Origin: Candidatus Yanofskybacteria bacterium RIFCSPHIGHO2_12_FULL_45_19b
GTDB taxonomy: Bacteria > Patescibacteriota > Minisyncoccia > 2-02-FULL-40-12 > IGHO2-12-FULL-4
Length of the DNA stretch: 64,000 nt
Direction of reading: 5' to 3'
Assembly (NCBI GenBank): GCA_001794605.1
Contig: MGKD01000013.1
Span: 13,463-77,462 of the forward strand
Shown: positions 4,723 through 36,958 of the stretch, piece by piece
Layout: every line of letters begins with the position of its first letter
Numbering within the stretch: position 1 is the first letter of the stretch
Notes under the pieces: generated by a model
What the model was told of the DNA's origin: nothing
Databases searched by the model: none
What the model saw: only the letters and a program-made list of their open reading frames with translations
Position numbers and translations under genes: made by a program

Positions 4723-4734
4723 TATACTTCTGAT

Positions 4735-5394
4735 ATGGCTAATCGAAAAATTAGTTTTATCAACGATAACTATTATCATATTTATAACCGTGGTATTGAT
4801 AAGCGGATTATCTTTGAGAATGACCACGATTTTAAAAGATTTCAAGAAAGTCTACGGCTATTCAATTCTCCTAATAGTATCTGGCTAGCTGATGCTAACC
4901 AGAAAACTGAGGTTAAACCTCAAGACCGTCTGGTAGATATAGTGTGCTACTGTCTAATGCCCAATCATTTCCATCTTTTACTTAAGCAACGAGTTGATAG
5001 TGGTATCCCAAATTTCATGCGAAAATTGGGCACTGGGTATTCGTTATATTTTAATATGCGCAAAGAACGAAGTGGTAGTTTATTTCAAGGTACCTACAAA
5101 GCCAAGCTAGTGACAGATGATAATTACCTGACTCATCTTTCTAGATATATTCACATGAATCCGGTTGAGCTGGTAGATAGTAATTGGAAAGTGGCCGGTA
5201 TAAAAAACAAAAGAACGGCATTTGATTTTCTCGATAAGTTTCAGTGGTCAAGTTATCCTGATTTTATATCAGAAGTCAGTGGCAAGATAATTAGTAGAAG
5301 TATTTTGCATGAAATGTTTACGCCCAGTAGCTACAAGAAATTCATCGAGAGCTGGCTAATTAAAGATTTAGAGCAAATTGCCCAACTACCTTGA
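4735..5394 (+). CDS. REP-associated tyrosine transposase (IS200/IS605-like Y1 HUH transposase, RAYT)
   Basis: HUH motif MPNHFHLLL. Candidate catalytic Tyr in LFQGTYKA. C-terminal YIHMNPVELV...WSSY signature of the transposase IS200-like family. Confidence 0.75.
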   Translation: MANRKISFINDNYYHIYNRGIDKRIIFENDHDFKRFQESLRLFNSPNSIWLADANQKTEVKPQDRLVDIVCYCLMPNHFHLLLKQRVDSGIPNFMRKLGTGYSLYFNMRKERSGSLFQGTYKAKLVTDDNYLTHLSRYIHMNPVELVDSNWKVAGIKNKRTAFDFLDKFQWSSYPDFISEVSGKIISRSILHEMFTPSSYKKFIESWLIKDLEQIAQLP

Positions 5395-5418: not shown

Positions 5419-5420
5419 AG

Positions 5421-6104: not shown

Positions 6105-6133
6105 ATGGTTATTTGTTAAGTAAGGTCTTATCT

Positions 6134-6694
6134 ATGCAGGAAGATCTAGATTTAGCAAAAATCACCCTGGATGCTTTTCACTCGATTGTCTATTTATCTT
6201 TTCTCGTTAAAGACAGTGGTTTGCGTGAGCGGCTAATTGCTAGAGCGAAACCACTGCTAGATCGTCCGGGGCGATCGGAATTTGAGCGAGTTAAAATGCT
6301 AGAGCAAACCGTCGCTTGCCTCCTCGATTATTTGGAACTCCTGGTCTATCTAAAGTCTGCTCCGCTAGGGGGTTTGCTGGAGACCCAAAAACAGGTACTG
6401 AAATTAAAATTGATTATTGTTAGCAAGGAGAAGAATGCTCATCCTAAAAAAGTTTCTAAACCAGAAGAGGTTCAAATTGAAACTGAAAAAGGAAATGACC
6501 AAATTTTGGATGAAAAAATTATTGAACTAGTTAAGACCAGAGATGGTTGTAACTTTAAGGATATTTCTGGCGAGCTAGGTGGGGAGTATTCCAAACGGAC
6601 TTTGATCCGTTATATCAACAAACTATTGGCGCGCGGTTTAATCAAGAAAAAGCTGGGGCTGGATACGAGGTTTCCTAGCTATACGGTTGAGTGA
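6134..6694 (+). CDS. putative DNA-binding protein with C-terminal winged-helix HTH
   Basis: C-terminus NFKDISGELGGEYSKRTLIRYINKLLARGLIKKK is wHTH-like. N-terminus is alpha-helical. Start ambiguous between TTG 6113 and ATG 6134. Confidence 0.45.
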   Translation: MQEDLDLAKITLDAFHSIVYLSFLVKDSGLRERLIARAKPLLDRPGRSEFERVKMLEQTVACLLDYLELLVYLKSAPLGGLLETQKQVLKLKLIIVSKEKNAHPKKVSKPEEVQIETEKGNDQILDEKIIELVKTRDGCNFKDISGELGGEYSKRTLIRYINKLLARGLIKKKLGLDTRFPSYTVE

Positions 6695-7095: not shown

Positions 7096-7443
7096 CACCA
7101 GAGCGTCTAAGGACTATTATCAGTTAGTAAATGCGGGCTAAAAAGGTGCGTAAAAAGCCACTATTTACGAGCTTGTAATAGGAATCTATCCGAGGCGAGC
7201 TTGGACCTTGAAAACTCAATAAAACGGTTGCTATATATTGTAAGTAAAATAAGAGGTCAAACTAAGCAATAATAATGAGCTCCATCGCTCGTTCTAAATT
7301 TTTTTGCTCGGTCGATAAAACAGAGCGAATTCCCTTTTTGAGGGTGAGGAACAAGTGAGTGGTGGTTCAATAAGTTAAACCGTTCTGGCTAGTTGGGTGG
7401 TCGCAAGACAAACCAAATTTATCCAGAACACAAATATCAATCT

Positions 7444-10400
7444 ATGAGTCAATTATCAACAAAAGGAACGAGAGCGGTTTTAATCAAAACTGCCTCAGTT
7501 CTCACAGGTGTAGCGACAATATTGTCGTTATCCGGAATCCTGGCTTTTGCCCCAGTGGCAGGTGCCGTGGCTCCGTCCAACTTCGGATTGACTGAGGGCA
7601 ACACGATCAGTGCTGCTGGCTCCGAAGATCCGGATGTCTATATCATTAATGATGCGGGCTACAAGAGATTGTTCTTGAACCCGGCAATCTTTGGCTTCTA
7701 TGGTCACCTCGGTGGCTTTGCCAACATTAAAAATGTTACCCCAGCGACTCGCGATGCCTTCGTAACTTCTGGTCTGTTCCGCAACTGCGAAACCAATGAC
7801 GAAAAAGTTTATGGCGTTGAGACTACTGGTGAGGACACCGGTATGTTGCACTGGGTAAATACTTCTGGTGCGCAGGCCGTTGCAGATGACCCAAATTTCT
7901 TCTTGAAAGTTTTCTGCATCAACAATAATGAGTTCAACTGGTATGCTAAGGGTACAAACTACACCTCAGTAAATCAGGTCCCGAACTATTCCAGAACTCC
8001 TGGTGTTACTCCAACCCCAACCCCATTGGCGGGTTCAGTGAGTGTCAGTCTAGCTCCGAACAATCCAGCCGCTTCTACTACTACGACTAACGCTCAAGGA
8101 GTGGAATACTTGCGAGTGCGTTTGAGTGGTAGTGGTACGGTTAACTCCGTAACGGTCAAGCGCACTGGCGCTGGTTCAGTAGATGACTTTGATAATATTT
8201 ACCTTTACGATGGCGCGCGTCGTCTCGTGACTGGTAAGTCATTGACTTCATCCACTGGCGAGGCAACTTTCAGCAACCTAAGCATTGCAGTGAATGGCTC
8301 TAAAGATATTTCAGTAGTAGCCGATCTTTCTGCTACCGCTGGTAATGTCAACGCCTTCAGCTTAAATGCTCTAAGTCTGACTTCTGGTTCGGTCAGTGGC
8401 CTACCAGTAGGCGGTAATAATCTTTCCGTTTCTGGTGCTACCTCCGGTACCATTACTATGACCAAGGTTGGTTCAATAGGTGATCCAAATGCAGGTCAGC
8501 AGGATGTACAGTTGTCTGAATTTAAGCTGTCGGCTAATACTGAAGCGGCTTCAGTCAGACGCATTCAGATGTTACAGGGCGGTACAGTTAATACCTCTGG
8601 TATCACTGATCTTAAATTGAAGACTGGTTCCAGTGAATGGTCAGGGACTATTGATAGCGCTGGCTATGTTGTCTTCGACCTTGGTTCCGGATTCAGTATT
8701 GTCAAGGGTGGCAATGCCGTCTTTAAGGTTTATGGTGATATTGCTGGCAAGAAAGACGAAACCATTAAGCTCTACTTTGAGTACGCTACTGACATTTTGG
8801 CAGTAGGCGATCAGTATGGCTATGGTATGGCTGTTACTAGTACTACTATGGACGCGGTAAGTGAGGCACATGCCCTTACCCTACAGGGTGGTGTATTAAC
8901 GCTTACCTCTTCTGGTTTAGTGGCATCGGATATCGGTACTGATACCGATGATACGGTCTTCCTACGTTATTCGATCGCTGCAGCCAGTAATGTTGAGATT
9001 CGTAAACATCGTTTAGTTATCAGTAGCGACAAGGGTGGTGATGGCACGTTTGACGATTTCGTCGTTGCGACCAGCACCAGTTTCGCTGATCTCGATGATA
9101 TCAAGGTAATTAATGAAGCTAACGGAGCGGTTCTAATCGGACCGGTTGATGGTAGTTCCTTTGATGAAGTTGGTACTGCAAATAACAGTGCCGGCGGCGC
9201 GGTGGAAGGGGCAATGAACACCTTTAGTGATGTCATTGATCTCTCCGCTGGCCAGACCTTGAGTCTGAAGGTTACCGCCGACGTGAAGACTGGCAACACA
9301 CGCACTGGTTCTGCACTCGTAGCTGGTTCTAAAGTAGCAATCGGTGTCCAGGATTACTCTGATAATGTTGGAGTAACCGAATTGAAATATACTGGCACCA
9401 ACACAGCTTTAGCGGCTGCGGACATTGTGCCAAATGCTAACATTCATGGTCCAACTATGACTTTGACCGCTTCCAGCTTAACTTTAAGCTTGGCCTCTAA
9501 CCCAGCCGACCAGACAGTCGTGCAAGGTAGCCAGAATGTTGATAGCGTTGGTATTATCTTCCAGGCTTCGAATGCTTCTGCCTTGAAAGTAACGAATATT
9601 ACCGTTACCGGTTACTCCGATGCGAATGGCGCCGATGCCTTCGATAAGGGCAGTGCGGGCGATATTGGTTCAATCGTGTCAGCTGTGTCGTTGGTGGAAA
9701 AAGAGAGTGGAACAGTTTTATCCTCTACTCCTTCTGCTAATAACCTGGCGGCTTCTGCCGGTACGATCGTCTTCAATAACCTAAACTGGAACATTCCAGC
9801 GGGTGCGAGTCGGACGCTTATTGTTAGAACTAATCTTCTAAACTTAACTCCGCCGACCAAGGACGAATTTGGCTTCGATATTGCGGCCACGACTGACGTG
9901 ACTGCCATCGACGATTCAAACACCACGGTTAATGCTGGTAATGCCACTCCAAACGGTGCCACCAGTATTACGACTGAAGTAGAGGTAGTCAGTGCTGGTA
10001 ATATCTTTGTTACCGAGTATTTATCCTCGCCTTCTAAAGACAAGCAGGCTATCTACTGGGGTCAGACCGGTGTAGCAGTTTCTACCTTCAATGTCCGTGC
10101 GGCGAAGGAGGGCTTCTACATTGACCGGTTCAACATAGTATCGGCTGATACAGCTGATGCCAAGAATAATGTTGCCGGCGTCTATCTGGAGTATCAGGAC
10201 AAGGCTGGTTCAACTCTTACTGCCGGTCCGTACTCCTTAAGTGGTAGTGTTGCGTCTGTGTCATTTGGTTTCAGTGGTGCAACTCGGCCATATATTCCAA
10301 AAGATCAGTCGCGTCAAGTTGTTGTGAAAATTGATACCATTGGTACTCATCTAGCTGGTGCGACCTCGGCAGTTGACTTTGCGATGAACTTCTCGGGTGG

Positions 10401-11046
10401 TGCTGCGGACGAATTCGAAGCTACCGGCGAGGGTTCATTTGCCAAGGTGCTCGGCAATGATACTACTGGTGACGATACCGATAGTGTAACTGTGTCCAAT
10501 AAGAACATGGTCTATCGTTCGTTCCCGAAGTTTACTAATATCGTCTTGGCTGATGGTGCTGCTAGTGCCAACGCAGTGGTAGGCAAGTTTACCATCACTG
10601 CTATGGGCTACGATGTGCTCTTCAATACGATTAACGTTGCTTCTGGTACGATTACCTTTGACACGGTGGCATCTGGTCAGACGGCTCCAGCCGATCCGAT
10701 GATCACACTGTATGATGATACTACTGGCCTAGTTTATTCTAGTGCTTCGTATGATATCGATACCGTTAATGCTTCTTTGAGCTTCTCGGAATTCCTGAAT
10801 GCCTTAAACATTCCGGCCGGTACCTCAAAGACATTGCGCGTCCAGGGTAACCTAACCGCCTTCAATCGCGCGACTAACACCACCAGTGGTGTGGCCGCTG
10901 ATCACTTTATGCTCGTCCTGCAGGATGAAGCTAATGTGATTAAGTGGGTTGACAGTGCGGGCGTCGATGCCAATCTTGACCAGGCTAATACGGCAGGTTA
11001 TATCAAGAACCTTCCGTTCAATGGACCGAACATGACTGGTCAGTAG
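7444..11046 (+). CDS. giant secreted cell-surface (S-layer-like) protein with multiple Ig-like/beta-sandwich repeats
   Basis: ATG at 7444 gives signal peptide MSQLSTKGTRAVLIKTASVLTGVATILSLSGILAFAPVAGA. Roughly 1200 aa, rich in T/S/G/V/A. N-terminal ~115-aa domain is paralogous to the C-terminus of the 54399-55340 protein. Confidence 0.65.
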   Translation: MSQLSTKGTRAVLIKTASVLTGVATILSLSGILAFAPVAGAVAPSNFGLTEGNTISAAGSEDPDVYIINDAGYKRLFLNPAIFGFYGHLGGFANIKNVTPATRDAFVTSGLFRNCETNDEKVYGVETTGEDTGMLHWVNTSGAQAVADDPNFFLKVFCINNNEFNWYAKGTNYTSVNQVPNYSRTPGVTPTPTPLAGSVSVSLAPNNPAASTTTTNAQGVEYLRVRLSGSGTVNSVTVKRTGAGSVDDFDNIYLYDGARRLVTGKSLTSSTGEATFSNLSIAVNGSKDISVVADLSATAGNVNAFSLNALSLTSGSVSGLPVGGNNLSVSGATSGTITMTKVGSIGDPNAGQQDVQLSEFKLSANTEAASVRRIQMLQGGTVNTSGITDLKLKTGSSEWSGTIDSAGYVVFDLGSGFSIVKGGNAVFKVYGDIAGKKDETIKLYFEYATDILAVGDQYGYGMAVTSTTMDAVSEAHALTLQGGVLTLTSSGLVASDIGTDTDDTVFLRYSIAAASNVEIRKHRLVISSDKGGDGTFDDFVVATSTSFADLDDIKVINEANGAVLIGPVDGSSFDEVGTANNSAGGAVEGAMNTFSDVIDLSAGQTLSLKVTADVKTGNTRTGSALVAGSKVAIGVQDYSDNVGVTELKYTGTNTALAAADIVPNANIHGPTMTLTASSLTLSLASNPADQTVVQGSQNVDSVGIIFQASNASALKVTNITVTGYSDANGADAFDKGSAGDIGSIVSAVSLVEKESGTVLSSTPSANNLAASAGTIVFNNLNWNIPAGASRTLIVRTNLLNLTPPTKDEFGFDIAATTDVTAIDDSNTTVNAGNATPNGATSITTEVEVVSAGNIFVTEYLSSPSKDKQAIYWGQTGVAVSTFNVRAAKEGFYIDRFNIVSADTADAKNNVAGVYLEYQDKAGSTLTAGPYSLSGSVASVSFGFSGATRPYIPKDQSRQVVVKIDTIGTHLAGATSAVDFAMNFSGGAADEFEATGEGSFAKVLGNDTTGDDTDSVTVSNKNMVYRSFPKFTNIVLADGAASANAVVGKFTITAMGYDVLFNTINVASGTITFDTVASGQTAPADPMITLYDDTTGLVYSSASYDIDTVNASLSFSEFLNALNIPAGTSKTLRVQGNLTAFNRATNTTSGVAADHFMLVLQDEANVIKWVDSAGVDANLDQANTAGYIKNLPFNGPNMTGQ

Positions 11047-11090
11047 TCTTAGTCTCGTCTGCTTCTTACTGCGCGTAAGTTCGGACAACC

Positions 11091-11116
11091 AAAAACCGCC
11101 TTCGGGCGGTTTTTGG
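11091..11116 (+). terminator. rho-independent terminator aaaaaccgcc-ttcg-ggcggttttt
   Basis: GC stem with TTCG tetraloop, flanked by an A-run and a T-run (potentially bidirectional). Confidence 0.8.
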
Positions 11117-11155
11117 TTGGTTGAAAACGGATTAGAATTAATCTATGATAAGAAA

Positions 11156-12988
11156 ATGTTTGGTATTTCAAGAGAAAAACTCGGAATGATCGGCCTGCTA
11201 GTTTTAGTAGGCGCGATTATTTATAGCTTCAATTTACATAACCAATTATTTTGGGATGATGCTGACTGGATTGTAAATAACCCCACTGTCCACGCTCTCG
11301 GTTGGGATAATATTAAGTTTTGGTTTTCTCATAATACCTTGGCTGGTATTGGTATGCAGAGTAATTACTATCGCCCCTTTTTATTTTTTACCTTTGCTAT
11401 TAATTATGTAATTTCTGGAGTTAATCCGTTCTCCTACCACCTATTTAGTAATGTTATTCACATTATTAACGGACTGCTAATTTTTCTCCTCTTCTCTAAT
11501 GTTATTAAAAATAAACTGGTTGGATTTATTGCCGCGCTACTCTTTTTAGTGCACCCGATTGCTACTGAGGCGGTTACCTATATTGCTGGTCGGGGCGATC
11601 CACTCTATGTATTTTTTACACTTCTAGGACTCTGGCTTTTTTACAGCGCCGAGAGTAAAAAACTGGGTTGGCCCGGTGTTACAACTTCCAGTAGTGGTCT
11701 GATCGCTGGAAAGAAAAATCTGGAAGTTGTAACACCGGGTTGGCTTAGTTGGCAAAAAATCGTCTCTTTAGTGGTCCTAGTTTTAGGTCTTTTGAGCCGA
11801 GAGGTAGCTATTGTTTTTCCTCTGCTAGCCCTTATTTTTTCGATAGCCTTCTTGGAGACGGGGACTTTTATTCGTTCAATCCTCAATTCGCTAAAAAGAA
11901 CCTGGCCTTACTTTGGAGTGGTTTTTGTTTATGGCATTCTACGTCTCACTCTGCTTAACTTTAACAATACCCTAAACTTTTATACTACTCCCAATATCTA
12001 CTCAGAGAACTTGCCCGTGCGCCTATTTACTTTTATGCACGCTTTGTTTGATTACTTTGGAATACTGTTTGTACCGATCAAATTACACATGGAGCGAAGC
12101 GTACCGATTCACCTCTCGCCGTTCGATTGGCCAGTCTGGGCGGTGATTCTACTGTCAGCCGGTGCTATCTATGGATTGTATCGTTTGTATAAAAAGGATC
12201 GCGGGGAGAGGACTTTCCGATTCTGGTTCTTTGTTTTTGGCTGGTTCTTTGTCGCTTTGGGGCCGGTGTCCGGGATTACGCCGATCAATGCCCAGATCTA
12301 TGAACATTGGCTCTACCTTCCCGCCGTCGCAATTTTCTTGGCAGTTGGTTATGGTTTTAGTTGGTTGTTGAATTTTTTGTCCACCAATCGTAAAGGGCTC
12401 CGACGTTTGATGGTTGGGACGTTTGCGCTATATATTGGTTGGCTTTCTTATCAGTCTATCCAGCGTAATATTGTTTGGGGCAAGCCGATTGAATTTTATC
12501 AAGATATTTTAACCTACGAACCGGATAGTGTGCGGATAAATAATAATCTGGGCAATCGGTATTATGATGAAGGCAATATTGATCGGGCTGAATATTACTA
12601 TCAACGTGCGGTGGAGAGTGAAGATATCTTTCCCCAGCCGCACTATAATCTGGGCACCATTTTACAGGCCAGGGGCGATAACCATGGTGCGATAGAGGAG
12701 TATAAAAAGGCACTTTTGATAAATCCTTATTTCCACTATCCCTACCAAAATTTAGCCCACCTCTATGCCCAGCAAGGGGATTTAGTTAAAGCCAGAGAAT
12801 TACTCGAGCAATTAGAAAAAATACGCCCTAACGATCCAGTAACCTACTACTCTTTGGCGGCGGTGCACCAGGCACAGGGTAACTATGTGCAGGCCAGGGC
12901 TTATGCTGAAAAGGGCCTACTCTATGCCCCTCCGAACAGTAAGGTGAGGCAGGCACTAGAGGAGATATTGACCCAGCTAAATAAGTAA
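11156..12988 (+). CDS. TMTC-like polytopic membrane protein with C-terminal TPR repeats (GT-C-type protein O-mannosyltransferase-like)
   Basis: N-terminal multi-TM region with H..N.LLF..N and ALLFLVHPIATEAVTYIAGR motifs. C-terminal TPRs (NNLGNRYYDEGNIDRAEYYYQRAVE...). Confidence 0.6.
   Translation: MFGISREKLGMIGLLVLVGAIIYSFNLHNQLFWDDADWIVNNPTVHALGWDNIKFWFSHNTLAGIGMQSNYYRPFLFFTFAINYVISGVNPFSYHLFSNVIHIINGLLIFLLFSNVIKNKLVGFIAALLFLVHPIATEAVTYIAGRGDPLYVFFTLLGLWLFYSAESKKLGWPGVTTSSSGLIAGKKNLEVVTPGWLSWQKIVSLVVLVLGLLSREVAIVFPLLALIFSIAFLETGTFIRSILNSLKRTWPYFGVVFVYGILRLTLLNFNNTLNFYTTPNIYSENLPVRLFTFMHALFDYFGILFVPIKLHMERSVPIHLSPFDWPVWAVILLSAGAIYGLYRLYKKDRGERTFRFWFFVFGWFFVALGPVSGITPINAQIYEHWLYLPAVAIFLAVGYGFSWLLNFLSTNRKGLRRLMVGTFALYIGWLSYQSIQRNIVWGKPIEFYQDILTYEPDSVRINNNLGNRYYDEGNIDRAEYYYQRAVESEDIFPQPHYNLGTILQARGDNHGAIEEYKKALLINPYFHYPYQNLAHLYAQQGDLVKARELLEQLEKIRPNDPVTYYSLAAVHQAQGNYVQARAYAEKGLLYAPPNSKVRQALEEILTQLNK
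11673..11744. mobile_element. MITE-like in-frame 72-bp insertion: 20-bp perfect inverted repeats flanked by 8-bp direct repeat GGGTTGGC
   Basis: IR arms cccggtgttacaacttccag (11672-11691) and ctggaagttgtaacaccggg (11720-11739). Direct repeats at 11665-11672 and 11737-11744. 72 bp = 24 codons, and the reading frame is kept. Confidence 0.55.
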
Positions 12989-13003
12989 CTAGAATAAGAG
13001 AAT

Positions 13004-13492
13004 ATGAATAAAAAGATAATGCTGGGAATTATAGTAGTGCTAGCACTGACAGGGGTTGGCCTTTTTGTCTATCAGCAGGGTAGCTCTGATCCCCAAATCA
13101 GTCCCACCGCTACCCCACCAGAGGGCGTACCGACCGGAATCAGTAATGTTCGCCCAGAGTGTCAATTGAGTGGCAGAATCGTTTTTATTGCTGATAAGCT
13201 AACGCGCAGTGATGGGGCCAGTTTCGTATACCAGGGGGTGATGGATTCGCATGATACTCTCAATTGGTCAATCAATCCAGCAGAGGATGTGAGGGTTGGT
13301 CCTAATCGTTTTTCCGCGATACCATTGCCGAATGGTAAGGAAACCCCAACCATCGCTTTTAACCAAGGGAAACCCAGTCTTACTACTTATAAACTAAGTG
13401 CCTCGATTGATTACCCTTACGTGGTAAATAATAAGGTAGAGGTGCTTAATCAAAAGTGTACTGGTACGATTGAAGTAAAGATTGCTTATTAA
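13004..13492 (+). CDS. hypothetical N-terminally membrane-anchored/secreted protein
   Basis: Single N-terminal hydrophobic helix. No recognisable domain. Confidence 0.4.
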   Translation: MNKKIMLGIIVVLALTGVGLFVYQQGSSDPQISPTATPPEGVPTGISNVRPECQLSGRIVFIADKLTRSDGASFVYQGVMDSHDTLNWSINPAEDVRVGPNRFSAIPLPNGKETPTIAFNQGKPSLTTYKLSASIDYPYVVNNKVEVLNQKCTGTIEVKIAY

Positions 13493-13494
13493 TT

Positions 13495-15150
13495 ATGAGT
13501 TGGGTGCGCTACTTGCAAAGACATCAGCTATTTTCAATAATGCTGGTGTCTTTAGTTTTGTCCTTTATAATTTTTGGCAATGGTATAAAAGGAGGCTTTG
13601 TCTTAGATGACACTGTGGTGGTGGAAAAACGAGGAGAGCTTAGAAAGCTGGAGAATTTTTTTACGCTGTTTATCTCACCTTATCATCAGAATGCTCCCTA
13701 TACCGGGCTATTTAGGCCAGTGACTATGGCTTCGTATGCCTTAAATTTCGCGCTACTTGGTCGTGGCCCGAGTGGTTTCCATTTGGTCAATATTATTTTG
13801 CATGCGCTTAATGTCGTTTTAGTGTTTGTGGTTACGCATAAATTGCTAAAGCATAAAAGACCGGCTATTTTTGCGGCACTGTTGTTTTTGGCGCATCCTT
13901 TACATGTTGAGGCGGTTACCTCGATCGTTGGTAGGGCTGAGTTGTTGGCTTTTTTAGGGAGCTTGTTGGCAATTATTTTTGCTTTAGAGCGTCGTTGGTG
14001 GTGGATGATTTTGGCGTTTTTCTTGGCGATTCTAAGCAAGGAAAGCGCCTTAGCGGTCTTGCCAATAATTCTCTACTTATGGCGTTGGCAACAAGGGCAA
14101 AGCTGGTCCTGGCTAGTTAAGAATAGTTCTCGCTTTTTGTTAGCCCTTGCCCCATATTTTTTGTTGCGCTACCTAGCGCTTGGCCAGTACTTATTTAAGT
14201 CTGGCTCCGTTAGTTTTGTGGAAAATCCTTTAAAATTTATGGATCTAGGAGAGCGTATTGCTAATGCTCTAATGGTATTCTGGCTTTATTTAACTAAATT
14301 ATTTTGGCCGGTTAAACTTTCGGCGGACTATTCTTACAACAGTATTCCCCTGGTGAAAAACTTGTTAACTTCTTGGCAGGCTAGTGTTGGTTTGGTTTTG
14401 TTGCTAGGCCTGATTGGCTTGCTGGTTTTTAAAAGAAAGGTTGGTTATGGCCAAGCGGCCGGAATTTTTGTTTTCCCTTATTTGGTTGTTGCCAATTTAT
14501 TTTTTCCAGTTGGTACGATTATGGGGGAGCGTCTGCTGTATCTACCCTCACTAGGAGTTATTATAATGGTGGCTTGGTTGCTGGAGCAAGGGTTATCTAA
14601 ATTATCTACCCGGCGCTATCAAAAATTTTTTTACGGTGGATTGGCAGTTGTTTTGTTAGTTTTAAGTTACCTAACTATCCAGCGTAATCAAGTCTGGCAA
14701 TCAAACGCGAGCTTGTTGAGTGCGGTTTCACAAGTTAATCCGAATAGCGTCATTGCTCAGACTGGGTTGGCAGCCATTGCCTTAACTAAAGATGACTTAA
14801 CTGAAACAACTAAAAGATTGGCGATTGCTAATACTATTTATCCAGGCTATGCTCCACTGCAGAATCTGCAAGGTATTGTCGCAGTTAAGACCGGAAATTT
14901 GGTGGCGGCCGAAAAGCATTACCTACGGGCAGTTGAACTGAATCCTCGTTCACTAAACGCTTACAACAACCTAGTCAGTCTTTATCTTTCCCAAAAAAAC
15001 TATACGCGGGCGGCACAGTACTTAGAAAAGGTAATTCAACTCAGTCCCACGCAAGAACAGGTAACACGTTATGGCCAGGTTTTATTAATGCTCGGTCGTA
15101 GTGAAGAGGCGGCTAGAATGATTGACTGGGCCAAAAAAATGGTAAAATAA
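13495..15150 (+). CDS. TMTC-like polytopic membrane protein with C-terminal TPR repeats (paralog of 11156-12988)
   Basis: Shares H..N..LH..N and AALLFLAHPLHVEAVTSIVGR motifs with the upstream paralog. C-terminal TPRs. Confidence 0.6.
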   Translation: MSWVRYLQRHQLFSIMLVSLVLSFIIFGNGIKGGFVLDDTVVVEKRGELRKLENFFTLFISPYHQNAPYTGLFRPVTMASYALNFALLGRGPSGFHLVNIILHALNVVLVFVVTHKLLKHKRPAIFAALLFLAHPLHVEAVTSIVGRAELLAFLGSLLAIIFALERRWWWMILAFFLAILSKESALAVLPIILYLWRWQQGQSWSWLVKNSSRFLLALAPYFLLRYLALGQYLFKSGSVSFVENPLKFMDLGERIANALMVFWLYLTKLFWPVKLSADYSYNSIPLVKNLLTSWQASVGLVLLLGLIGLLVFKRKVGYGQAAGIFVFPYLVVANLFFPVGTIMGERLLYLPSLGVIIMVAWLLEQGLSKLSTRRYQKFFYGGLAVVLLVLSYLTIQRNQVWQSNASLLSAVSQVNPNSVIAQTGLAAIALTKDDLTETTKRLAIANTIYPGYAPLQNLQGIVAVKTGNLVAAEKHYLRAVELNPRSLNAYNNLVSLYLSQKNYTRAAQYLEKVIQLSPTQEQVTRYGQVLLMLGRSEEAARMIDWAKKMVK

Positions 15151-15156
15151 ATCGAT

Positions 15157-16449
15157 ATGAAATACTGGAAAATCAGCCTAGCTAGTGTGGTAATTGTTGC
15201 CGTATTGGTCTGGGGTTTTTGGGGTCGACTAGCTGGTTTCGGCCGCTTTTTAGGCCTTTTGCGGGGTGAAAATTCTAATATTAATCTGACCGGCCTAACC
15301 TTGCCAAGTGGCTTTAAGCTTGAGGTAGTAGTTAAGAATCTAAACAAACCGCGCGTTATTGTTTTTGACGCAAAAGAGCGCATGTTGGTGAGCGAGTTAG
15401 GCGCCAATCAGATAACTATTTTTGAGCCGGGAGCGGACGGTAAATTAGTTGGACGTATCCTGATAGAAAAACTACGTTCTCCACACGGGCTAGCTTTTTA
15501 TACTGACCAAAAAAAGAAGGTTACCTATCTATATGTAGCGGAAAGTTATCAGGTAGTGCGTTATATTTATAATGTTGCTAGTGGTTCGGTAGTTGTCAGT
15601 AGCGCGGAAAATATCGCAAACTTTTCTGATACCGGTTTGCACATAACGCGAACTATTGCTTTCGGTCCTAATTTTAGAACCACCCCAATTGTTAAAGGTT
15701 ATCTGGATAGAGAAACCCAGTTGGCCAATAAGTTGTATGTTAGCGTTGGTTCTTCTTGTAATGTTTGCGTGGAGGAAAGTTGGAAACGCGGAGCAATTTT
15801 GGAAGCCGACCCGGAGGGCACTTTTCTGGCTGAGTTTGCTGGTGGCTTACGCAATTCGGTTTTCTTTACCTTCCACCCGAAGACTGGACAGCTTTGGGCA
15901 ACTGAAATGGGGCGCGACAATTTAGGAGATAAACTACCACCCGATGAAATTAATATTGTGAAAGTGGCGAATGTTGAAACCCCGTTTGGGGCCAGGCGTT
16001 ATGGTTGGCCCTTTTGTTACGGCGATAAGATAAAAGATAGTACTTTTAATCCAGCTCCTTTCCAGCGCACTGATGTACCAAAGGATTGTACTAAAACTGA
16101 ATCATCTTATCTTGATATTCCGGCTCACTCTGCGCCCTTGGGACTGGCTTTTATCACTGATCCAACTTGGCCGACCGAATGGCAAGATGATCTTTTGGTA
16201 GCTTATCATGGGTCATGGAATAGTACTGCTCCAGTGGGTTACAAAATTGTTAGGTTTGTTTTAGCTGCCGATGGAAATATTACGAAAGACGTAGCTGGTC
16301 AACCGCAGGTGGAAGATTTTATCACCGGCTGGCTTAGTAATGGCAAGGTTTCAGGGCGTCCAGTAGATCTAAAGTTCCATGCTGGCAGTTTATTCATTTC
16401 TGACGATTATTCCGGAGTGATATACAAAGTAAGTCGTGTCTCACAATAA
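15157..16449 (+). CDS. membrane-anchored soluble-quinoprotein glucose/sorbosone dehydrogenase (GSDH) family beta-propeller
   Basis: GGLRNSVFFTFHPKTGQLWATEMGRDNLGDKLPPDEINIV and YGWPFCYG motifs typical of the GSDH family. N-terminal TM. Confidence 0.6.
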   Translation: MKYWKISLASVVIVAVLVWGFWGRLAGFGRFLGLLRGENSNINLTGLTLPSGFKLEVVVKNLNKPRVIVFDAKERMLVSELGANQITIFEPGADGKLVGRILIEKLRSPHGLAFYTDQKKKVTYLYVAESYQVVRYIYNVASGSVVVSSAENIANFSDTGLHITRTIAFGPNFRTTPIVKGYLDRETQLANKLYVSVGSSCNVCVEESWKRGAILEADPEGTFLAEFAGGLRNSVFFTFHPKTGQLWATEMGRDNLGDKLPPDEINIVKVANVETPFGARRYGWPFCYGDKIKDSTFNPAPFQRTDVPKDCTKTESSYLDIPAHSAPLGLAFITDPTWPTEWQDDLLVAYHGSWNSTAPVGYKIVRFVLAADGNITKDVAGQPQVEDFITGWLSNGKVSGRPVDLKFHAGSLFISDDYSGVIYKVSRVSQ

Positions 16450-17953
16450 GCATAAACTGATTGCTGGTTTTTTGTTTGTCAGTTTTTTGGTTTTAGTTTT
16501 TATTTTTAGTATTCATGCGCTCGGTTCAATTAATCAGGATATCGGTCGCCACCTAACCCTGGGGAAGATTATCTGGCAAACGCACCATATCCCCACTACT
16601 AATCTGTTCTCTTATACGGCACCAGACTGGCCGTTTATCAACCATCACTGGTTGGCAGAGGTAGCGATCTATTTAGGTGAACGCTGGGTTGGTCTGCGGG
16701 GTCTCATTACTGCCAAGGCTTTAATTATTGCCTTAGCTTTTGGCTTAACGCTACTAGCGGCTTGGCGAAAAGCTAGGCCAGTGTCGATTATTTTATTTGG
16801 CCTATTGGCTATCGCCATGATGTTAGAGCGTACTGATCTGCGTCCGGAGATTTTTAGTTTTCTGTTTCTGGCCTGGTACCTGTTCGTGCTTTATCGGCAA
16901 CACGACCAAGCCACTGGTTGGTTATTGTGGACTTTAATCCCAGTACAATTACTCTGGGTTAATACCCACATCTACTTTTTTATTGGCCCACTGTGGTATC
17001 TGCTATTTTTGCTGGCTGATTGGATTAAAAAGGCGCAGATCACTCCCTCGACTAGGCAAGACCTAGTCAGGGGGAAAACTTGGCTGGTCGGGGCTGGAGT
17101 AGTTTTGATGAATTTTATTAACCCCTTTGGTTGGCGCGGGGCGATCTATCCGCTACAAGTTTTTAGTAACTATGGTTATTCAATTGCGGAGAACAAGGGG
17201 CCGTTATTTTTGCGCGCCTGGGGGTTCCCGCAGTTTACTACTTATGTTTTGTTTTTCTGCATTGCGCTTTTGGTTTTGGGGATTATCCTAAACTGGCGAA
17301 GCTGGCGTGAACATTTTTTCGCAATCAGTAGTAGTATTGTTGCCGGAATCTTTGCGTTGTTAATGGTGCGAAACTTTCCACTCTTTGCCTTAACTTTAAT
17401 TCCCGCTGGTGCGCTTTTGTGGACAGAAATTATGGAGCGTTGGAGAGGAGAAAAACCGCAAACCCAGTCAGGCAAGCTTGTCTTGCTGTTGGTGGTAGTG
17501 CTGTCGATTGTTAGTGTGCTGACTGGTGAGTTCTATCAGCGATTTGGTTTATCACGACAGTTCGGTTTGGAGGTGCCAGTGGGGGCGCAGGCAGGAGTAG
17601 ATTTTGTACGCACCAACAAATTACGCGGCCCGATTTTCAACAATTTTGACGTGGGCAGTTTCTTAATCTGGCGCTTACCAGAAGAGCCTGTCTTTATTGA
17701 TGGTAGGCCGGAGGCTTATCCGGCAGATTTTATCCAGAAAACCTATATCCCGATGCAAGAAGATCCGGCTTTGTGGAAAAAATACTCAGAGCAATACAAT
17801 ATCCAGTATGTTTTTTGGGATTATCACGATATTACCCCTTGGTCACAGCAATTTATTAAAGCCATGTTAAACAACTCGGCCTGGCCGTTGGTTTATCGTG
17901 ATGACACCATATTAATTTTTGTCCGTGCTAACCCTCATCTAGTAGGCGAGTAA
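16436..17953 (+). CDS. polytopic integral membrane protein, possibly GT-C-like
   Basis: About 12 predicted hydrophobic helices. Start overlaps the upstream gene. Confidence 0.4.
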   Translation: MSHNKHKLIAGFLFVSFLVLVFIFSIHALGSINQDIGRHLTLGKIIWQTHHIPTTNLFSYTAPDWPFINHHWLAEVAIYLGERWVGLRGLITAKALIIALAFGLTLLAAWRKARPVSIILFGLLAIAMMLERTDLRPEIFSFLFLAWYLFVLYRQHDQATGWLLWTLIPVQLLWVNTHIYFFIGPLWYLLFLLADWIKKAQITPSTRQDLVRGKTWLVGAGVVLMNFINPFGWRGAIYPLQVFSNYGYSIAENKGPLFLRAWGFPQFTTYVLFFCIALLVLGIILNWRSWREHFFAISSSIVAGIFALLMVRNFPLFALTLIPAGALLWTEIMERWRGEKPQTQSGKLVLLLVVVLSIVSVLTGEFYQRFGLSRQFGLEVPVGAQAGVDFVRTNKLRGPIFNNFDVGSFLIWRLPEEPVFIDGRPEAYPADFIQKTYIPMQEDPALWKKYSEQYNIQYVFWDYHDITPWSQQFIKAMLNNSAWPLVYRDDTILIFVRANPHLVGE

Positions 17954-19088
17954 ACTGGCGAGTCATCTGTTCTTGGGTGAAGTGCTTGATAATATTTTGG
18001 TGAGCGGCGATGGCCAAGTCTTGACGCAATCGATCAGAAGCCAAAACCGTTTCGATATTACGAGCCAAACGGTTGGGGTTTCTAATCGCTACCACCAAAC
18101 CATTTTCTCCAGAATTAATTAGTTCAGGAATTGCTCCCACCGCCGTCGCTACCACCGGGACCTGGGCGGCCATGGCTTCGAGTACTGACCAGGGAAACCC
18201 TTCTTTGTTTGAGGGCAGGACAAATACATCAAAGGCTTTAAGATAACGTTGGGCCTCGGTTATTTTACCAAGCAAGAAAACTCGCTTCTCTTGACGCAGT
18301 GTTTTAATCAAGCGCTCTAGTTCTGGTCTTAGCCTACCATCGCCGATGATCAAAAAAATTGCCTCTGGGTTAGTAATCTGGGCGGCGGCGCGGATAAAAT
18401 TAGCCGTGTCCTTGGCTGGATAGAAGTTGCCGATCGTGCCAACCACTAAATCAGTTGGCGGGTTGGCCTTTCCAATTTTACTAAATAGTTTTTCTCTCGC
18501 CTCACTGCGTGGTATGAATTCCAAATAGGGATCAATGCCGTTAGGTATGTAAATCAACTCTTTGCGCGGCTTGATGCCTAGTTGTTCAGCTAACTGTCGG
18601 TCGTTTTGGTTGTTAACCACGATGATATCTTTCCAACGAGCACTCAATTTCTCTAAAAGAATATAGAATTTTTTTCGCCAGTAAGACCAGGGGTCATTAA
18701 AAGTCCAACCACCGATGCGGTAAATTACCTTGAGCCAGGGCAGGCGACGTGGCCAACGGGCGGCCAGTGCGCCAATAAAACCAGCTTTGGTGCCATTTAA
18801 AAACAGGACATCTGGCTGGAAGTCTTTAATTAGGGCGCGCAATTCTGATACAGCGCGCAAATTAGCTTGCCAATTACCGTCACGTTGCAAATAGGTTAGT
18901 TGCTGGGTGGCAACCGCTTTTGCTTTCAGTGCCGAATTCAAGCCAGCATCGCCCTCGCTACCAATTGCCACTAAGCACTGAAAGCGATTTTCAGCTAGTT
19001 TGGGGACGAAATTATTAAAAAATTGCTGGGCGCCACCGAGCTCAGATTGAGTGACTACAAAGAGAATTCTGCGCTGTTTTCTAATCAA
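17928..19088 (-). CDS. glycosyltransferase family 4 (GT-B); 5' end abuts/overlaps the IS left inverted repeat
   Basis: EGFPWSVLEAMAAQVPVVATAVGAIPELI motif. No in-frame ATG; only the TTG inside the IS inverted repeat. Confidence 0.8.
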   Translation of the reverse strand: MIRKQRRILFVVTQSELGGAQQFFNNFVPKLAENRFQCLVAIGSEGDAGLNSALKAKAVATQQLTYLQRDGNWQANLRAVSELRALIKDFQPDVLFLNGTKAGFIGALAARWPRRLPWLKVIYRIGGWTFNDPWSYWRKKFYILLEKLSARWKDIIVVNNQNDRQLAEQLGIKPRKELIYIPNGIDPYLEFIPRSEAREKLFSKIGKANPPTDLVVGTIGNFYPAKDTANFIRAAAQITNPEAIFLIIGDGRLRPELERLIKTLRQEKRVFLLGKITEAQRYLKAFDVFVLPSNKEGFPWSVLEAMAAQVPVVATAVGAIPELINSGENGLVVAIRNPNRLARNIETVLASDRLRQDLAIAAHQNIIKHFTQEQMTRQFTRLLDEG

Positions 19089-20009
19089 TAGCTTGGAACC
19101 GCTTTAATGATTTCCATCGGGGTTTTAAAGTTTAATCCCATGTGTGGCCGCTCTGTATTGTAGTATTGAATAAACTCTGGTATTTCTTTTTGCCATGCCT
19201 CCATAGTTCTTGGTATCCGATGCAGACACTCTTTTTGTAGGGTTTGAATGAATCTTTCCACATGAGCATTGTCAGTTGGTGTTCGTACTCGGGTGTGCCG
19301 ATGTTCTAAACCATCATGGATGGTAATCTTGGTAAACCATTTAGCAAACTCCGAGCCATGATCCGTCTGGATGGTCTTGAACGAGAACGGAGCTTGCTCC
19401 CGTGCCGTCCGCATGAAACTGCTGGTGGCTCGACAATTCACCGCCAGCGCTGGTTCCGCATAGGCCCAGCGGGAGCAGACATCAATCAAGGCATAGGCGG
19501 ATAACCTTTCTGCTGGTATCCCCTCATGTACAGCATCAATTTCCACTAACCAGCCTGGTTTTTCTGGCATGGGCCGTTCCGGATACTGGTGCCACTTCTT
19601 CCATTTGGAATACTTTGATATACCATATCTTTTTAGTATTCGTTTGACCGTACTCAGACTGACTACAATATTTCTTTCTGTGCCCAGTCGGTGATGCAGA
19701 ATCTCGGCACACTGACTCCGTTCGCTTCTTAACTCGAGAATCTGTTTCACAATCTCAAGATCAATCTCATTGGGGTGATGGTCTGGTCGTGATGATCGGG
19801 TGGGCAAGAACTGACTGTTGTGGTGCAAGAGCTTGGCTCGTGCTACCCATTTCACCACGGCACTATGGGTAAAGCCAAAGTGCCGTGCCACCGCTCTAAC
19901 ACTCCATCCGGACTGGACTAACCGTACCGCTTCCATCCTGATCCGAGGCAATCGATTGTATATGCTGTACATTCTCATATTCTAGCAGGGGTGGTTCCAA
20001 GGTATTGAA
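19084..20009 (-). mobile_element. IS481-family-like insertion sequence copy 1 (about 926 bp) with 19-bp imperfect terminal IRs
   Basis: IR-L atcaatagcttggaaccgc (19084-19102) pairs with IR-R gtggttccaaggtattgaa (19991-20009) at 16/19. Contains the transposase ORF. Confidence 0.6.
19085..19978 (-). CDS. IS481-family DDE transposase (rve integrase core)
   Basis: N-terminal HTH. WLVEIDAVH, TDHGSEF and DNAHVERF (DDE) motifs. Confidence 0.8.
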   Translation of the reverse strand: MRMYSIYNRLPRIRMEAVRLVQSGWSVRAVARHFGFTHSAVVKWVARAKLLHHNSQFLPTRSSRPDHHPNEIDLEIVKQILELRSERSQCAEILHHRLGTERNIVVSLSTVKRILKRYGISKYSKWKKWHQYPERPMPEKPGWLVEIDAVHEGIPAERLSAYALIDVCSRWAYAEPALAVNCRATSSFMRTAREQAPFSFKTIQTDHGSEFAKWFTKITIHDGLEHRHTRVRTPTDNAHVERFIQTLQKECLHRIPRTMEAWQKEIPEFIQYYNTERPHMGLNFKTPMEIIKAVPSY

Positions 20010-34478: not shown

Positions 34479-35735
34479 ATGGAAACTGTCATCCAAGTAA
34501 AAAACATCTCAAAGCGATATAAAATTACTCACTGGCAAGGTGGGTATCTAACCCTGCGTGATGTTATAAGTAATACTTTCAAACACCCCCTAAGGTTTTT
34601 TAAGAATAAAATGAGTAATATAATTTCGGGGGAGAGTCGAGAGGATTTTTGGGCCTTACGTGGTCTGAGTTTTTCGGTGCAAAAAGGAGAGGTGATTGGT
34701 ATTATTGGTGCTAATGGTGCTGGCAAGTCCACCCTACTTAAAATTCTAACTAAAATAACTCCACCCTCAGAAGGAGAGATAGTTTTGCGCGGTAAAGTTT
34801 CTTCTTTGTTGGAGGTGGGAACTGGTTTCCACCCCGAACTGACTGGTCGGGAAAATATTTTTTTCTATGGTGCGATCCTCGGAATGAAAAAGAAGGAGAT
34901 TGTTGATAAATTTGATCGCATTGTTGAATTTGCTGGTATGCAGAAGTTTTTGGATACACCAGTCAAAAAATATTCTTCCGGTATGTATGTACGCCTGGCT
35001 TTTTCAGTAGCCGCACACATGGAGCCAGATATTTTATTGATTGATGAGGTTTTAGCTGTGGGGGATGCTGAATTTCAAAAAAAGTGTTTAGAAAAAATGA
35101 AGAGTGTTGCGCGTGACGATAATCGCACCATTTTATTTATTAGCCATAACATGAATGCGGTCCGCGGGCTATGCAACCGTTGCGTGTTATTGGAAAAAGG
35201 GGAAATAAAAATGGTGGGTGATACCGAAGCGGTGATTAGTGCTTATCTTAAGCACCGGGAGGGTGAGTTTGGTAAAGCTGTTTTTGAGTACCCGACTGAC
35301 CAAAGCAAGCCTATCAACATTAAAAAAATTAAAATTCTTGGGGCAGATGGTACGGTTACGGCGCACCTAGAAGCGGGTATGCCATTTTCAATTGAGTTGG
35401 GGTATTCTGTCAACCAAGCGGTCGCAGCCTCACGAATATTTATTTCCTGTGTTAATGAGGAGGGGGTGGAGTTGTTTGTTTCTTGTGATACAGATAAACA
35501 GCCAGAGCTTTTTACCAACCGAGAGCCCGGTAACTACCGAGCGACTTTTCAATTTCCTGCTACCAATGAAATTTCACTGGCGGCGGGCGACTACTTTTTA
35601 AGAGTGCGTGTTACTTCTGATCCACAGGCCGATCACCTGATTCCATTGACCATAGAGAATTTAGCAAAAAGATTCGTGGAATTACCTGGTGTAATGGCAC
35701 TTGCCTCTAAGTGGCACTTAGAAAAAATCGAATAA
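34479..35735 (+). CDS. polysaccharide ABC exporter ATPase (Wzt/TagH-like) with C-terminal carbohydrate-binding extension
   Basis: Walker A GANGAGKST, signature YSSGMYVRLAF, Walker B LLIDEV. About 160-aa C-terminal beta-rich extension. Confidence 0.85.
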   Translation: METVIQVKNISKRYKITHWQGGYLTLRDVISNTFKHPLRFFKNKMSNIISGESREDFWALRGLSFSVQKGEVIGIIGANGAGKSTLLKILTKITPPSEGEIVLRGKVSSLLEVGTGFHPELTGRENIFFYGAILGMKKKEIVDKFDRIVEFAGMQKFLDTPVKKYSSGMYVRLAFSVAAHMEPDILLIDEVLAVGDAEFQKKCLEKMKSVARDDNRTILFISHNMNAVRGLCNRCVLLEKGEIKMVGDTEAVISAYLKHREGEFGKAVFEYPTDQSKPINIKKIKILGADGTVTAHLEAGMPFSIELGYSVNQAVAASRIFISCVNEEGVELFVSCDTDKQPELFTNREPGNYRATFQFPATNEISLAAGDYFLRVRVTSDPQADHLIPLTIENLAKRFVELPGVMALASKWHLEKIE

Positions 35736-35752
35736 ATTTTTTTCTTGTTAAT

Positions 35753-36958
35753 ATGAAAAAATACTTAAAATTACCGCCCGGAGTTAATCCTAATAAGAAT
35801 AATATTTTTCCAGTTAACCTACCCTATTATTTACTTACCCATAGCGCACACCTTGCTGATGATAAAGAGCAGAAGTGGGTGGTTTTTTGGGGAGTGCCAT
35901 TCCGACAACTACCGACTATCTATGCTGATGAAAAAGAGTTCATTCGGCAGGCCAACCTTTGTCTAGATTATGTACGACGAGGGTGCGTAGGTTGTAAACT
36001 ATTCTACAAAACTCATCCCAATGAAACCGACGAACAAACCTCACTTGATTTAACGGGGTTTCAAATTTTGTCACAGAAAGAAGTGGCGGAATTTTTTGTC
36101 TTGAAAAACTTTCACAAAATAAGACAGGTTTTTTCTACTTACTCTAGCGCGGCGATGACTGCTTATAAATTGGGTCTCGACGCTCACATTTTTCTGCCCT
36201 TGGTGGAACCGTCTTTGACCGAGCAGAATCGCAATGGCAACCGCGAATATTATAAGCATATGCCACCAGAATTCTTTATTGACAAGTTTAGTGCTTCTCC
36301 TAAAACCAATAAACTCAATATTCCTCAACAGCCCGATGCGGTTTTAAGGGAAAATCTTTTGGTGTTGCTAAAAGACCGCCCGGCTCAGACTATTTGGTTT
36401 ATTTTGGGAGATCCGGGTTCACTGACCTCGGTTATTTTACTGGCACGATTTATAAAAGAACTTGCTCCGCAGGCTGCTATCGGTTTAATCATTGAACGAC
36501 ATCATCGTTGGCAGGTAATGAATTTGGCAGAGGTAAAAACTTTTTTTGATCATATGCTGGTTTATCCGCGCTGGCTACCATCGTTGCGCCCAAATAAAAT
36601 TTGGGCGCAACTTAAAACTGCCTGGGCCTTACGTCGAGCACCGATTGCTCCGAACGATATAATCTTTGGTTTTAACTATACGGCCTTTGTGGAAAACTGT
36701 CTGCTCACCTACTTCCCCAGCAACCTAAAAGTGGCTTTTGTAAAAAAAGAAACCCTGGAGTTTTGTTATGGCTCAAAAGAAAAAGCCTTTTTTCAAAACT
36801 ACTTTTCACGCATTGGCCATCGTTTTTATGCCAGAGTAATCCAGCCTATTTTGGGACTGTACCCCACGGTTTTTTTAGAGGATCCGGTGCGAGTGGCTAA
36901 CTTTGACCGCTATCTTATGCCAATTAACGACCTGTATGATCAGGTGTATGTATATTAG
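35753..36958 (+). CDS. hypothetical protein with HP motif; paralog of 51714-52886; candidate CMP-sugar (sialyl/Kdo-type) glycosyltransferase
   Basis: Shares CLDY, THPNE/PHPDE, FDLDL.GF, LGL.AH.F and FVENC/FIENC blocks with the 51714 protein. Confidence 0.35.
   Translation: MKKYLKLPPGVNPNKNNIFPVNLPYYLLTHSAHLADDKEQKWVVFWGVPFRQLPTIYADEKEFIRQANLCLDYVRRGCVGCKLFYKTHPNETDEQTSLDLTGFQILSQKEVAEFFVLKNFHKIRQVFSTYSSAAMTAYKLGLDAHIFLPLVEPSLTEQNRNGNREYYKHMPPEFFIDKFSASPKTNKLNIPQQPDAVLRENLLVLLKDRPAQTIWFILGDPGSLTSVILLARFIKELAPQAAIGLIIERHHRWQVMNLAEVKTFFDHMLVYPRWLPSLRPNKIWAQLKTAWALRRAPIAPNDIIFGFNYTAFVENCLLTYFPSNLKVAFVKKETLEFCYGSKEKAFFQNYFSRIGHRFYARVIQPILGLYPTVFLEDPVRVANFDRYLMPINDLYDQVYVY

Follow-up and report, generated by a model that had tools for sequence, protein, structure and literature searches.

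The window analysed here is a stretch of 64,000 nucleotides from Candidatus Yanofskybacteria bacterium RIFCSPHIGHO2_12_FULL_45_19b (contig MGKD01000013.1, positions 13,463 to 77,462), an uncultured groundwater member of the Patescibacteria, or candidate phyla radiation (CPR). On its forward strand the open reading frame (ORF) 11117..12988 encodes a multi-pass membrane protein of 623 amino acids with C-terminal tetratricopeptide repeats (TPRs), and a short palindromic element at 11665-11744 lies in frame within this gene. The start codon is likelier to be ATG 11156 (610 amino acids) than TTG 11117, because a terminator-like hairpin (CAACCAAAAACCGCC-TTCG-GGCGGTTTTTGGTTG, 11086-11119), situated between a gene for a 1217-aa protein and the host gene, overlaps the TTG and because ATG 11156 is the gene call of record KKS13727.1 (P0121).

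The host protein itself reaches only TPR models, with family matches at residues ~470-620. Several orthologs match PF02366 (PMT) and PF13231 (PMT_2), one of them being named 'protein O-mannosyl-transferase', and the adjacent paralog at 13495..15150 matches TMTC_DUF1736 (PF08409). The FWDD motif of the first loop is invariant in the ortholog alignment. With its multiple membrane passes, acidic first-loop motif, PMT profiles in orthologs and TPRs, the gene has the features of the TMTC/PMT-like GT-C glycosyltransferases, in agreement with the original prediction, made from the sequence alone, of a TMTC-like gene. Hundreds of homologs are found in metagenome-assembled genomes of Patescibacteria, from Yanofskybacteria and their relatives.

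The layout of 11665-11744 is GGGTTGGC-CCGGTGTTACAACTTCCAG-(28 nt)-CTGGAAGTTGTAACACC-GGGTTGGC. The arms of the inverted repeat, CCCGGTGTTACAACTTCCAG at 11672..11691 and CTGGAAGTTGTAACACCGGG at 11720..11739, are complementary in 20 of 20 nucleotides (100%) and are separated by a 28-nt spacer at 11692..11719 (TAGTGGTCTGATCGCTGGAAAGAAAAAT), which forms the loop of the hairpin. Copies of the direct repeat GGGTTGGC are present at 11665..11672 and 11737..11744 with a start-to-start spacing of 72, exactly 24 codons. Both repeats are thus found as predicted. Direct and inverted repeats share 1 nt at the left end and 3 nt at the right end, which leaves TTGG (11668-11671 and 11740-11743) as the minimal duplication around a 68-nt element. 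The unit can be read in two ways: an 8-bp duplication around a core of 64 nt, or a 4-bp duplication, TTGG, around an element of 68 nt whose terminal repeats are 20 nt long. The element has no transposase ORF, its ends are CCCGG/CCGGG, and GTAG is present only at the junction of arm and loop (11691-11694).

The inverted repeat is not due to chance, because 100 shuffles gave no match to the 20-mer arm, even with 3 mismatches allowed. When folded as RNA the region reaches -54.2 kcal/mol (z = -9.7). Perfect hairpins with arms of at least 11 nt and loops of up to 60 nt number 13 in the window and 0-3 in 20 shuffles, thus the genome is rich in hairpins, most of which are intergenic. The same scan gave another 8-mer direct repeat at an offset of 77, and the direct repeat taken alone could be chance. 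However, it abuts the ends of the inverted repeat and is in register with a gap in the orthologs, so it is not coincidental.

This gap was seen in a protein alignment of 27 sequences (26 orthologs and the window protein). The nearest orthologs, P0002 and P0003 with 66-68% identity, both lack the 24 residues and are syntenic with the window: both have a gene for a protein of ~1200 aa upstream, and in the locus of P0003 (L003) the synteny extends downstream over a small ORF, the paralog and a GSDH-like gene. Most of the 26 orthologs lack the insert and none carries its sequence. The DNA of L002 and L003 has a single GGTTGGC-type site each (...GGCTGGTTGG... and ...GGTTGGCGG..., more fully GAAAAATTGCGGCAGGGCTGGTTGGGTTGGCGT and GAAAAGTTGCTACAAGGTTGGCGGAGCTGGCGC). 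When 72 nt are taken out, the window reads ...AAA CTG GGT TGG CTT AGT TGG... (AESKKLGWLSWQK), and the resulting peptide, AESKKLGW joined to LSWQK, equals AEKLRQGWLGWRK in length and has the pattern of the family consensus. Because the orthologs have a single site and removal of 72 nt restores their length, the net difference (11673..11744, with a register ambiguous by up to 8 nt owing to the duplication) is a true in-frame insertion that duplicated 4 (TTGG) to 8 bp of its target, as had been proposed. Since the insert-free sequence fits the ortholog consensus, neither arm is ancestral and one copy of GGGTTGGC is the duplication. That the segment is ancestral and was lost elsewhere is scarcely credible, as 26 aligned orthologs are without the sequence and every deletion would have had to take exactly one copy of the repeat together with the palindrome. 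The same very low probability applies to an assembly artefact, against which stand the independent assemblies described below.

Within ORF 11117..12988 (+) the 72 nt keep the reading frame and code for P186-W209 (PGVTTSSSGLIAGKKNLEVVTPGW); three of the six combinations of frame and orientation are without a stop. An AlphaFold2 model of the host protein has ~13 long helices followed by the TPRs, with a mean predicted local distance difference test (pLDDT) score of 81. Residues 183-211 are modelled as a coil between helices 161-182 and 212-227, with pLDDT <50 at 188-206, thus the 24 extra residues would extend a loop between two helices, predicted to be disordered, which is also where the original prediction placed them. 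Helix counting puts this loop outside the membrane whereas the flanking positive charges put it inside. Sequence and fold searches of solved structures were dominated by TPR matches and gave no topology information.

The insert is not confined to one assembly. An independent JGI contig (L001) carries it with 1 mismatch in 7872 nt, and the five members of the 90% protein cluster (from JGI, NCBI with KKS13727.1 and OGN19526.1, ENA and Logan) are spread over more than 25 contigs. All five members have the insert; because these are independent assemblies and records, it is not an assembly artefact. One member, P0123, lacks the eight residues GLIAGKKN. Its contig (L027) matches window 6726-17097 over 10,348 nt without a mismatch, the one difference being a gap of 24 nt that corresponds to 11696..11719 in the spacer. 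The hairpin of L027 is CCCGGTGTTACAACTTCCAG-TAGT-CTGGAAGTTGTAACACCGGG, with a loop of 4 nt, and the element is thereby 44 nt long. The identity of the two contigs apart from this gap implies a very recent in-frame gain or loss of 24 nt at the hairpin tip. Only two alleles, with loops of 28 and 4 nt, were seen. The insertion itself is recent or fixed, being present in all near-identical strains and not in orthologs at 66-68% identity.

An exact look-up in a collection of 15 billion proteins found neither the protein of an empty site, as expected from precise excision, nor the protein with an inverted spacer, and there is thus no evidence for excision or inversion alleles. This bears on the idea that the hairpin is functional, causing a pause in translation after a transmembrane helix, serving as a target for RNase III or acting as a contingency locus in which the loop peptide is varied by indels or inversion. 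The high stability of the RNA hairpin, the in-frame difference of 24 nt between identical strains and the fact that an inverted spacer would stay open are consistent with such a role. We nevertheless consider it, the contingency locus included, very improbable: the nearest orthologs manage without the element, the two hypothetical proteins are absent, the alleles are only two, no terminator-like tail follows the hairpin, and Rfam gave no family above threshold, only miRNA-hairpin models below it.

On balance, the probable explanation is a recent insertion of a 68-bp non-autonomous inverted-repeat element, either a minimal MITE (miniature inverted-repeat transposable element) or a remnant of transposon ends, which is probably selfish or neutral. 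An element with a 28-bp spacer between two terminal inverted repeats of 20 bp would have entered a YTGG-type target in loop-coding sequence and duplicated 4-8 bp of it. It would have been kept because 72 nt are 24 codons, the frame used is free of stops and the loop tolerates insertions across the family. Most likely it has no function in the cell and is selfish or neutral DNA that is merely translated. The tip of the hairpin would afterwards have been unstable, giving the 24-nt in-frame indel between otherwise identical strains. We infer the action of a transposase, the kind of transposase and the lack of a function, while the insertion, its duplication, frame and location in a loop, the polymorphism and a sister family of the same architecture, described below, are observed.

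Several results weigh against this explanation. No second copy of the element was found in the window, in scans of sequence collections, in a protein word search or in a search of representative proteins. No autonomous element with matching ends was found, and the ends of the transposases in the window differ from those of the element. With 68 bp, or 44 bp in the short allele, the element is smaller than usual MITEs. In addition, most other hairpin inserts in the orthologs show no target duplication, and the sister element has no similarity to the window element beyond the termini in an alignment of their DNA.

The search for copies was made at several levels. The 20-mer arm, with up to 3 mismatches allowed, has no second copy in the 64-kb window. 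The collections were scanned with the pattern GGTGTTACAACN{25,55}GTTGTAACACC, which would miss the allele with a 4-nt loop. Genome contigs gave 1 unrelated match and no related element, a result that is weak for the source genome because the source contig was not among the results; viral contigs gave 0 matches, and metagenome contigs gave 17 loci, none of them related, again with the source contig not among the results. Searched as peptides, the three open frames gave one word-sharing protein cluster and nothing that scored. An exhaustive search of representative proteins with 32 aa found no other protein with the peptide of the element, and plasmid and phage sequences yielded only chance-level BLAST matches to the element. 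The further copies of the 20-mer that the original prediction had proposed to look for were thus found neither in the window nor in the collection scans, from which the source genome is absent. The prediction had named the lack of copies together with a coincidental direct repeat as grounds for rejection; the first part holds and the second does not. Its term MITE-like stands as far as terminal repeats, duplication and small size are concerned; membership of a multi-copy family mobilised by a transposase is putative.

Some candidates from these searches were rejected. All 17 metagenome loci are either operator- or iteron-like arrays of GGTGTTACAAC or a hairpin at the 3' end of fmt. Two repeat proteins from the search of representatives are unrelated, their score of 64 bits being the sum of 12 weak repeats. 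The fmt hairpin, from another CPR-like genome (L005 1999-2059 and L011 569-629), has 17-nt arms and a 27-nt loop, and the first 14 nt of its arms (GGTGTTACAACTTC) equal the window arms. This likeness was judged to be probably a coincidence of the search pattern and less probably a sign of distant kinship.

The sister element was found in the first loop of an ortholog (P0042) at L025 2479-2546. The element, CCCCGTTAGAGGC...GCCTCTAACGGGG, is 68 nt long with inverted repeats, has CTGG on either side (region 2475-2550) and brings the total insertion to 72 nt; the protein loop that contains it is not that of the window element. Its empty-site reading, KKRLVAFLT, equals the consensus. The two elements share a length of 68 nt, termini of the type CCCSG/CSGGG and a YTGG duplication preceded by GG. 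The translation of the reverse strand of the L025 element (PVRGRSPPGDRSRAFGRAASNG) matches a 24-aa insert in another ortholog, P0046, with 73% identity over 22 aa (E = 1.5e-8 in a small local database). That insert, at residues 322-343, is in another loop than the one in P0042, in reverse orientation and in a different frame, and because of this match at a different loop the family of the L025 element has moved. It follows that elements of the 68+4 layout do move. A protein search with the frames of the L025 element gave 202 word-sharing candidates, none at E <= 10, and is uninterpretable. The 275 kb of fetched DNA contained only three elements in which terminal repeats of 9 nt or more have non-palindromic 4-nt repeats on their flanks: the window element, the L025 element and an unrelated one in non-CPR contigs. 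The 24-aa insert of P0045 was considered as the same type and rejected, since neither a perfect inverted repeat nor a duplication in register is present; therefore not every 72-nt insert is of this type.

Inserts are frequent in the orthologs and many of them are palindromes. In-frame perfect hairpins at inserts were found in L023 (arm/loop 18/1, 16/3 and 13/10), L024 (19/3), L028 (25/29, 15/10 and three units of 14/3) and L029 (23/1), and L025 has a 26-nt imperfect repeat at an insert, while the insert-free orthologs L002 and L003 have no perfect hairpins. In 11 orthologous genes, 10 of 16 perfect hairpins are inside insert columns, which make up 5.1% of the nucleotides (binomial p = 7e-10). 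In L028 the in-gene hairpin at 2240-2318 has 25-nt arms and a 29-nt loop, with imperfect pairing that continues ~10 nt outward, and the one at 2963-3002 has 15-nt arms and a 10-nt loop; L029 has an in-gene palindrome of 47 nt with 23-nt arms at 9343-9389.

A different account is that no mobile element was involved and that the insert is palindromic filler from break repair or template switching, the direct repeat being a microhomology-mediated fill-in. The single copy and the unstable tip of the hairpin agree with this, as does the fact that many ortholog inserts are perfect palindromes with loops of 0-5 nt and no duplication, which resembles a mutational process. However, blastn-short found no template for the arm and spacer in the flanks, in the 64-kb window or in any fetched locus, and the insertion-free sequence equals the ortholog consensus with neither arm ancestral. 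An insertion machinery is favoured by the occurrence of the same 68+4 layout with YTGG in an unrelated element, of which a second copy exists elsewhere. Repair filler is therefore held to be clearly improbable for this insert.

Inserts in 120 orthologs are concentrated at five loops, and identical peptides reappear at more than one loop. TSDVxxTSDV is found in 11 of the 120 orthologs at 3 loops of the glycosyltransferase family, NDAKKHANY...SHSH at 3 loops, and RFDLG, LEVQP and RLNLG also recur among the inserts. The TSDV unit is a doublet of GACATCNGATGTC, and it is in frame in two other genes as well (in L026 and L028). The doublet palindrome, GACATCSGATGTC-N3-5-GACATCSGATGTC of 31-35 nt, is located at L023 3087-3121, L026 1455-1485, L028 2703-2733, 3787-3817 and 4309-4339, and L029 9182-9212. 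It is always read as TSDVxxTSDV, in three different genes and four genomes, with none in the window, and TTAAC precedes four of the copies. The clustering of inserts, the recurrence of peptides and the presence of TSDV in other genes show that mobile translated palindromes are common in the clade.

The window contains two transposase genes. A Y1 (HUH) transposase, 6 kb upstream of the element at 4735..5394 (+), resembles the transposases associated with repetitive extragenic palindromes (REPs), known as REP-associated tyrosine transposases (RAYTs): it matches PF01797 with 35 bits (cut-off 23), and its best NCBIfam match is the REP-associated tyrosine transposase NF047646, whose 45 bits fall short of the cut-off of 80. 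GTAG-tagged palindromes, CTACCTTGAGGTT-N-AACCTCAAGGTAG (the flank also given as CTACCTTGAGGTTNAACCTCAAGGTAG), lie around the gene at 4694-4722 and 5379-5419. Their core palindrome GAGGTTNAACCTC is present in 4 copies in the window, where 0.13 would be expected. The further cores are at 3269-3281 and 4909-4921, one copy being inside the transposase ORF (peptide TEVKPQ). Window 4694-5419 is a REPtron, as described in PMC3733652, in a CPR genome. The second gene, at 19085..19978 (-), encodes an IS481/IS3-like DDE transposase (rve, rve_3, HTH_23, HTH_32). Candidate 16-nt terminal repeats, TCAATAGCTTGGAACC / GGTTCCAAGGTATTGA, were seen for it in the region 19085-20008, with no clear target duplication. 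Within the window, the ends of neither transposase resemble the element ends CCCGGTGTTACAAC. Elements of the IS1380 type, whose ends are CC and whose duplications span 4-5 bp, might be considered as a source.

In the main rival explanation, a Y1 (HUH) transposase of the IS200/IS605-RAYT kind would have moved the insert as a single-strand hairpin element, similar to REPINs (doublets of REPs) or palindrome-associated transposable elements (PATEs). There would then be no staggered cut, one YTGG being the target of the host on the 5' side and the other the element's own 3' end. Besides the RAYT-like gene with its tagged palindromes 6 kb away and the excess of the core GAGGTTNAACCTC, the same core is found as in-frame doublets in the orthologs L022 and L023, and the GACATCNGATGTC doublet is in frame in three genes, four genomes and three loops of the gene family. 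Both 68-nt elements are flanked by YTGG after GG, which suggests sequence-specific targeting, and intragenic REPs have been documented (PMC3733652). Against this, the arms of the element are not small palindromes and are unrelated to the REP of the window, there is no GTAG/CGTC tag at the element end, and the flanking identity reaches 8 bp, beyond a target of 4 nt. Y1 elements normally have two different subterminal hairpins and not one perfect hairpin. Movement by a Y1 transposase, including the reading of the two YTGG copies that it entails, is judged unlikely, though less so than repair filler. Insertion mediated by a transposase is the best supported explanation, with the single-strand mechanism as its main rival and repair filler in third place.

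Translated in-frame palindromes are already known from Rickettsia. Rickettsia palindromic elements (RPEs) are likewise palindromic, non-coding-capable repeats, located in frame within unrelated protein genes and translated as an extra peptide compatible with the fold (PMC10969869). They are ~100-150 bp long, with tens of copies per genome and a conserved peptide, whereas the window element is 68 bp long, has one known copy, a clear target duplication and a host among the Patescibacteria. The window element is thus, like the RPEs, an in-frame translated palindromic element, and the protein searches did not reveal a repeated family with a conserved peptide in unrelated genes for it. Such a repeated peptide is found for other elements of the clade, TSDVxxTSDV and the L025/P0046 element.

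Bacterial MITEs such as the QMITE of Coxiella, cyanobacterial MITEs and Correia elements also have terminal inverted repeats and a target duplication and lack a transposase gene, and occasionally they are fused in frame with host ORFs (PMC10969869, PMC5896051). The window element has the terminal inverted repeats, a flanking duplication with a single empty site and a small size without a transposase ORF, and in the window no autonomous insertion sequence with matching ends was found. In size it is at or below the lower limit of MITEs, and its short allele is approximately two terminal repeats back to back. REPs and REPINs in REPtrons are similar in being short hairpin-forming repeats with intragenic examples on record (PMC3733652) and a RAYT-like gene in the window. 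The window element differs in having no terminal GTAG/CGTC tag and arms that are not small palindromes, in being unlike the window REP that flanks the RAYT and in having a duplication that REPs do not make. For the PATEs derived from IS200/IS605, the YTGG flank of the two elements fits a fixed target, while the identity extends to 8 bp and the hairpin is single and symmetric.

Nearly precise excision of Tn10-type transposons leaves a short palindrome of transposon ends in the gene, still flanked by the target duplication. For the window element no parent transposon is known, and the 68-nt sister family suggests a defined mobile unit and not a random deletion product. The coding palindromes of Nematomorpha mitochondria and the hairpins of sponge and yeast mitochondria are also perfect in-frame inverted repeats (PMC6649704, PMC2800124). 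They differ in being organellar and often much longer, with both arms encoding conserved protein, while the window unit is an extra loop. The element behaves like RPEs, in-frame MITEs and intragenic REPs. Full-text searches of the literature gave no description of such elements in Patescibacteria.

Translated selfish palindromes have been an oddity of Rickettsia. The CPR case suggests a general route by which small gene-dense genomes might accommodate mobile DNA and gain variation in protein loops, because there is a clean example, an allele that differs in the hairpin tip alone, three or more further element families at five hot-spot loops and a RAYT/REP unit nearby. The interest lies mainly in the clade-wide pattern and the 68+4 architecture. 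As a speculative extension, which we hold only tentatively, there might be an undescribed class of ultra-small transposable units of 68 bp with CCCSG...CSGGG ends that duplicate 4 bp (YTGG) and lengthen the host sequence by 72 nt, or 24 codons, every time. Together with REP-like doublets, these units would then be active in Patescibacteria, with a preference for in-frame sites in loop-coding DNA or with survival at such sites only. If so, they would be a main source of protein length variation in these reduced genomes, and a process like that of the RPEs would have been found independently in CPR. Inserts of this kind inflate the apparent divergence of proteins and may mislead the annotation and alignment of CPR proteins.

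The protein of 1217 aa encoded upstream (7393-11046, +) looks secreted, has no Pfam match and is encoded directly upstream of the glycosyltransferase in all close relatives; it may be a substrate of the glycosyltransferase. A long cluster for glycan synthesis at ~17900-44000 contains six GT4 and two GT2 glycosyltransferases, a PMT_2 membrane protein, several methyltransferases, a B12-radical SAM enzyme, a Wzm/Wzt-type ABC export system, NeuB and UDP-GlcNAc 2-epimerase. The cluster and the two TMTC-like genes suggest a surface-glycosylation island. The DDE transposase gene is situated between two of the GT4 genes.

Other palindromes are present in the window. An intergenic cluster of nested palindromes based on CATGGTGCCAG extends over 6694-6835, right after ORF 6113..6694 and upstream of the gene for the 1217-aa protein. 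It includes a perfect palindrome of 48 nt (6694-6741, with 24-nt arms and no loop) and three more inverted copies. A second perfect in-gene palindrome, GTTGCGCCCAAAT-AAA-ATTTGGGCGCAAC, is located at 36583-36611 in ORF 35711..36958 (+), whose product of 415 aa has no Pfam match, and is read as SLRPNKIWAQL.

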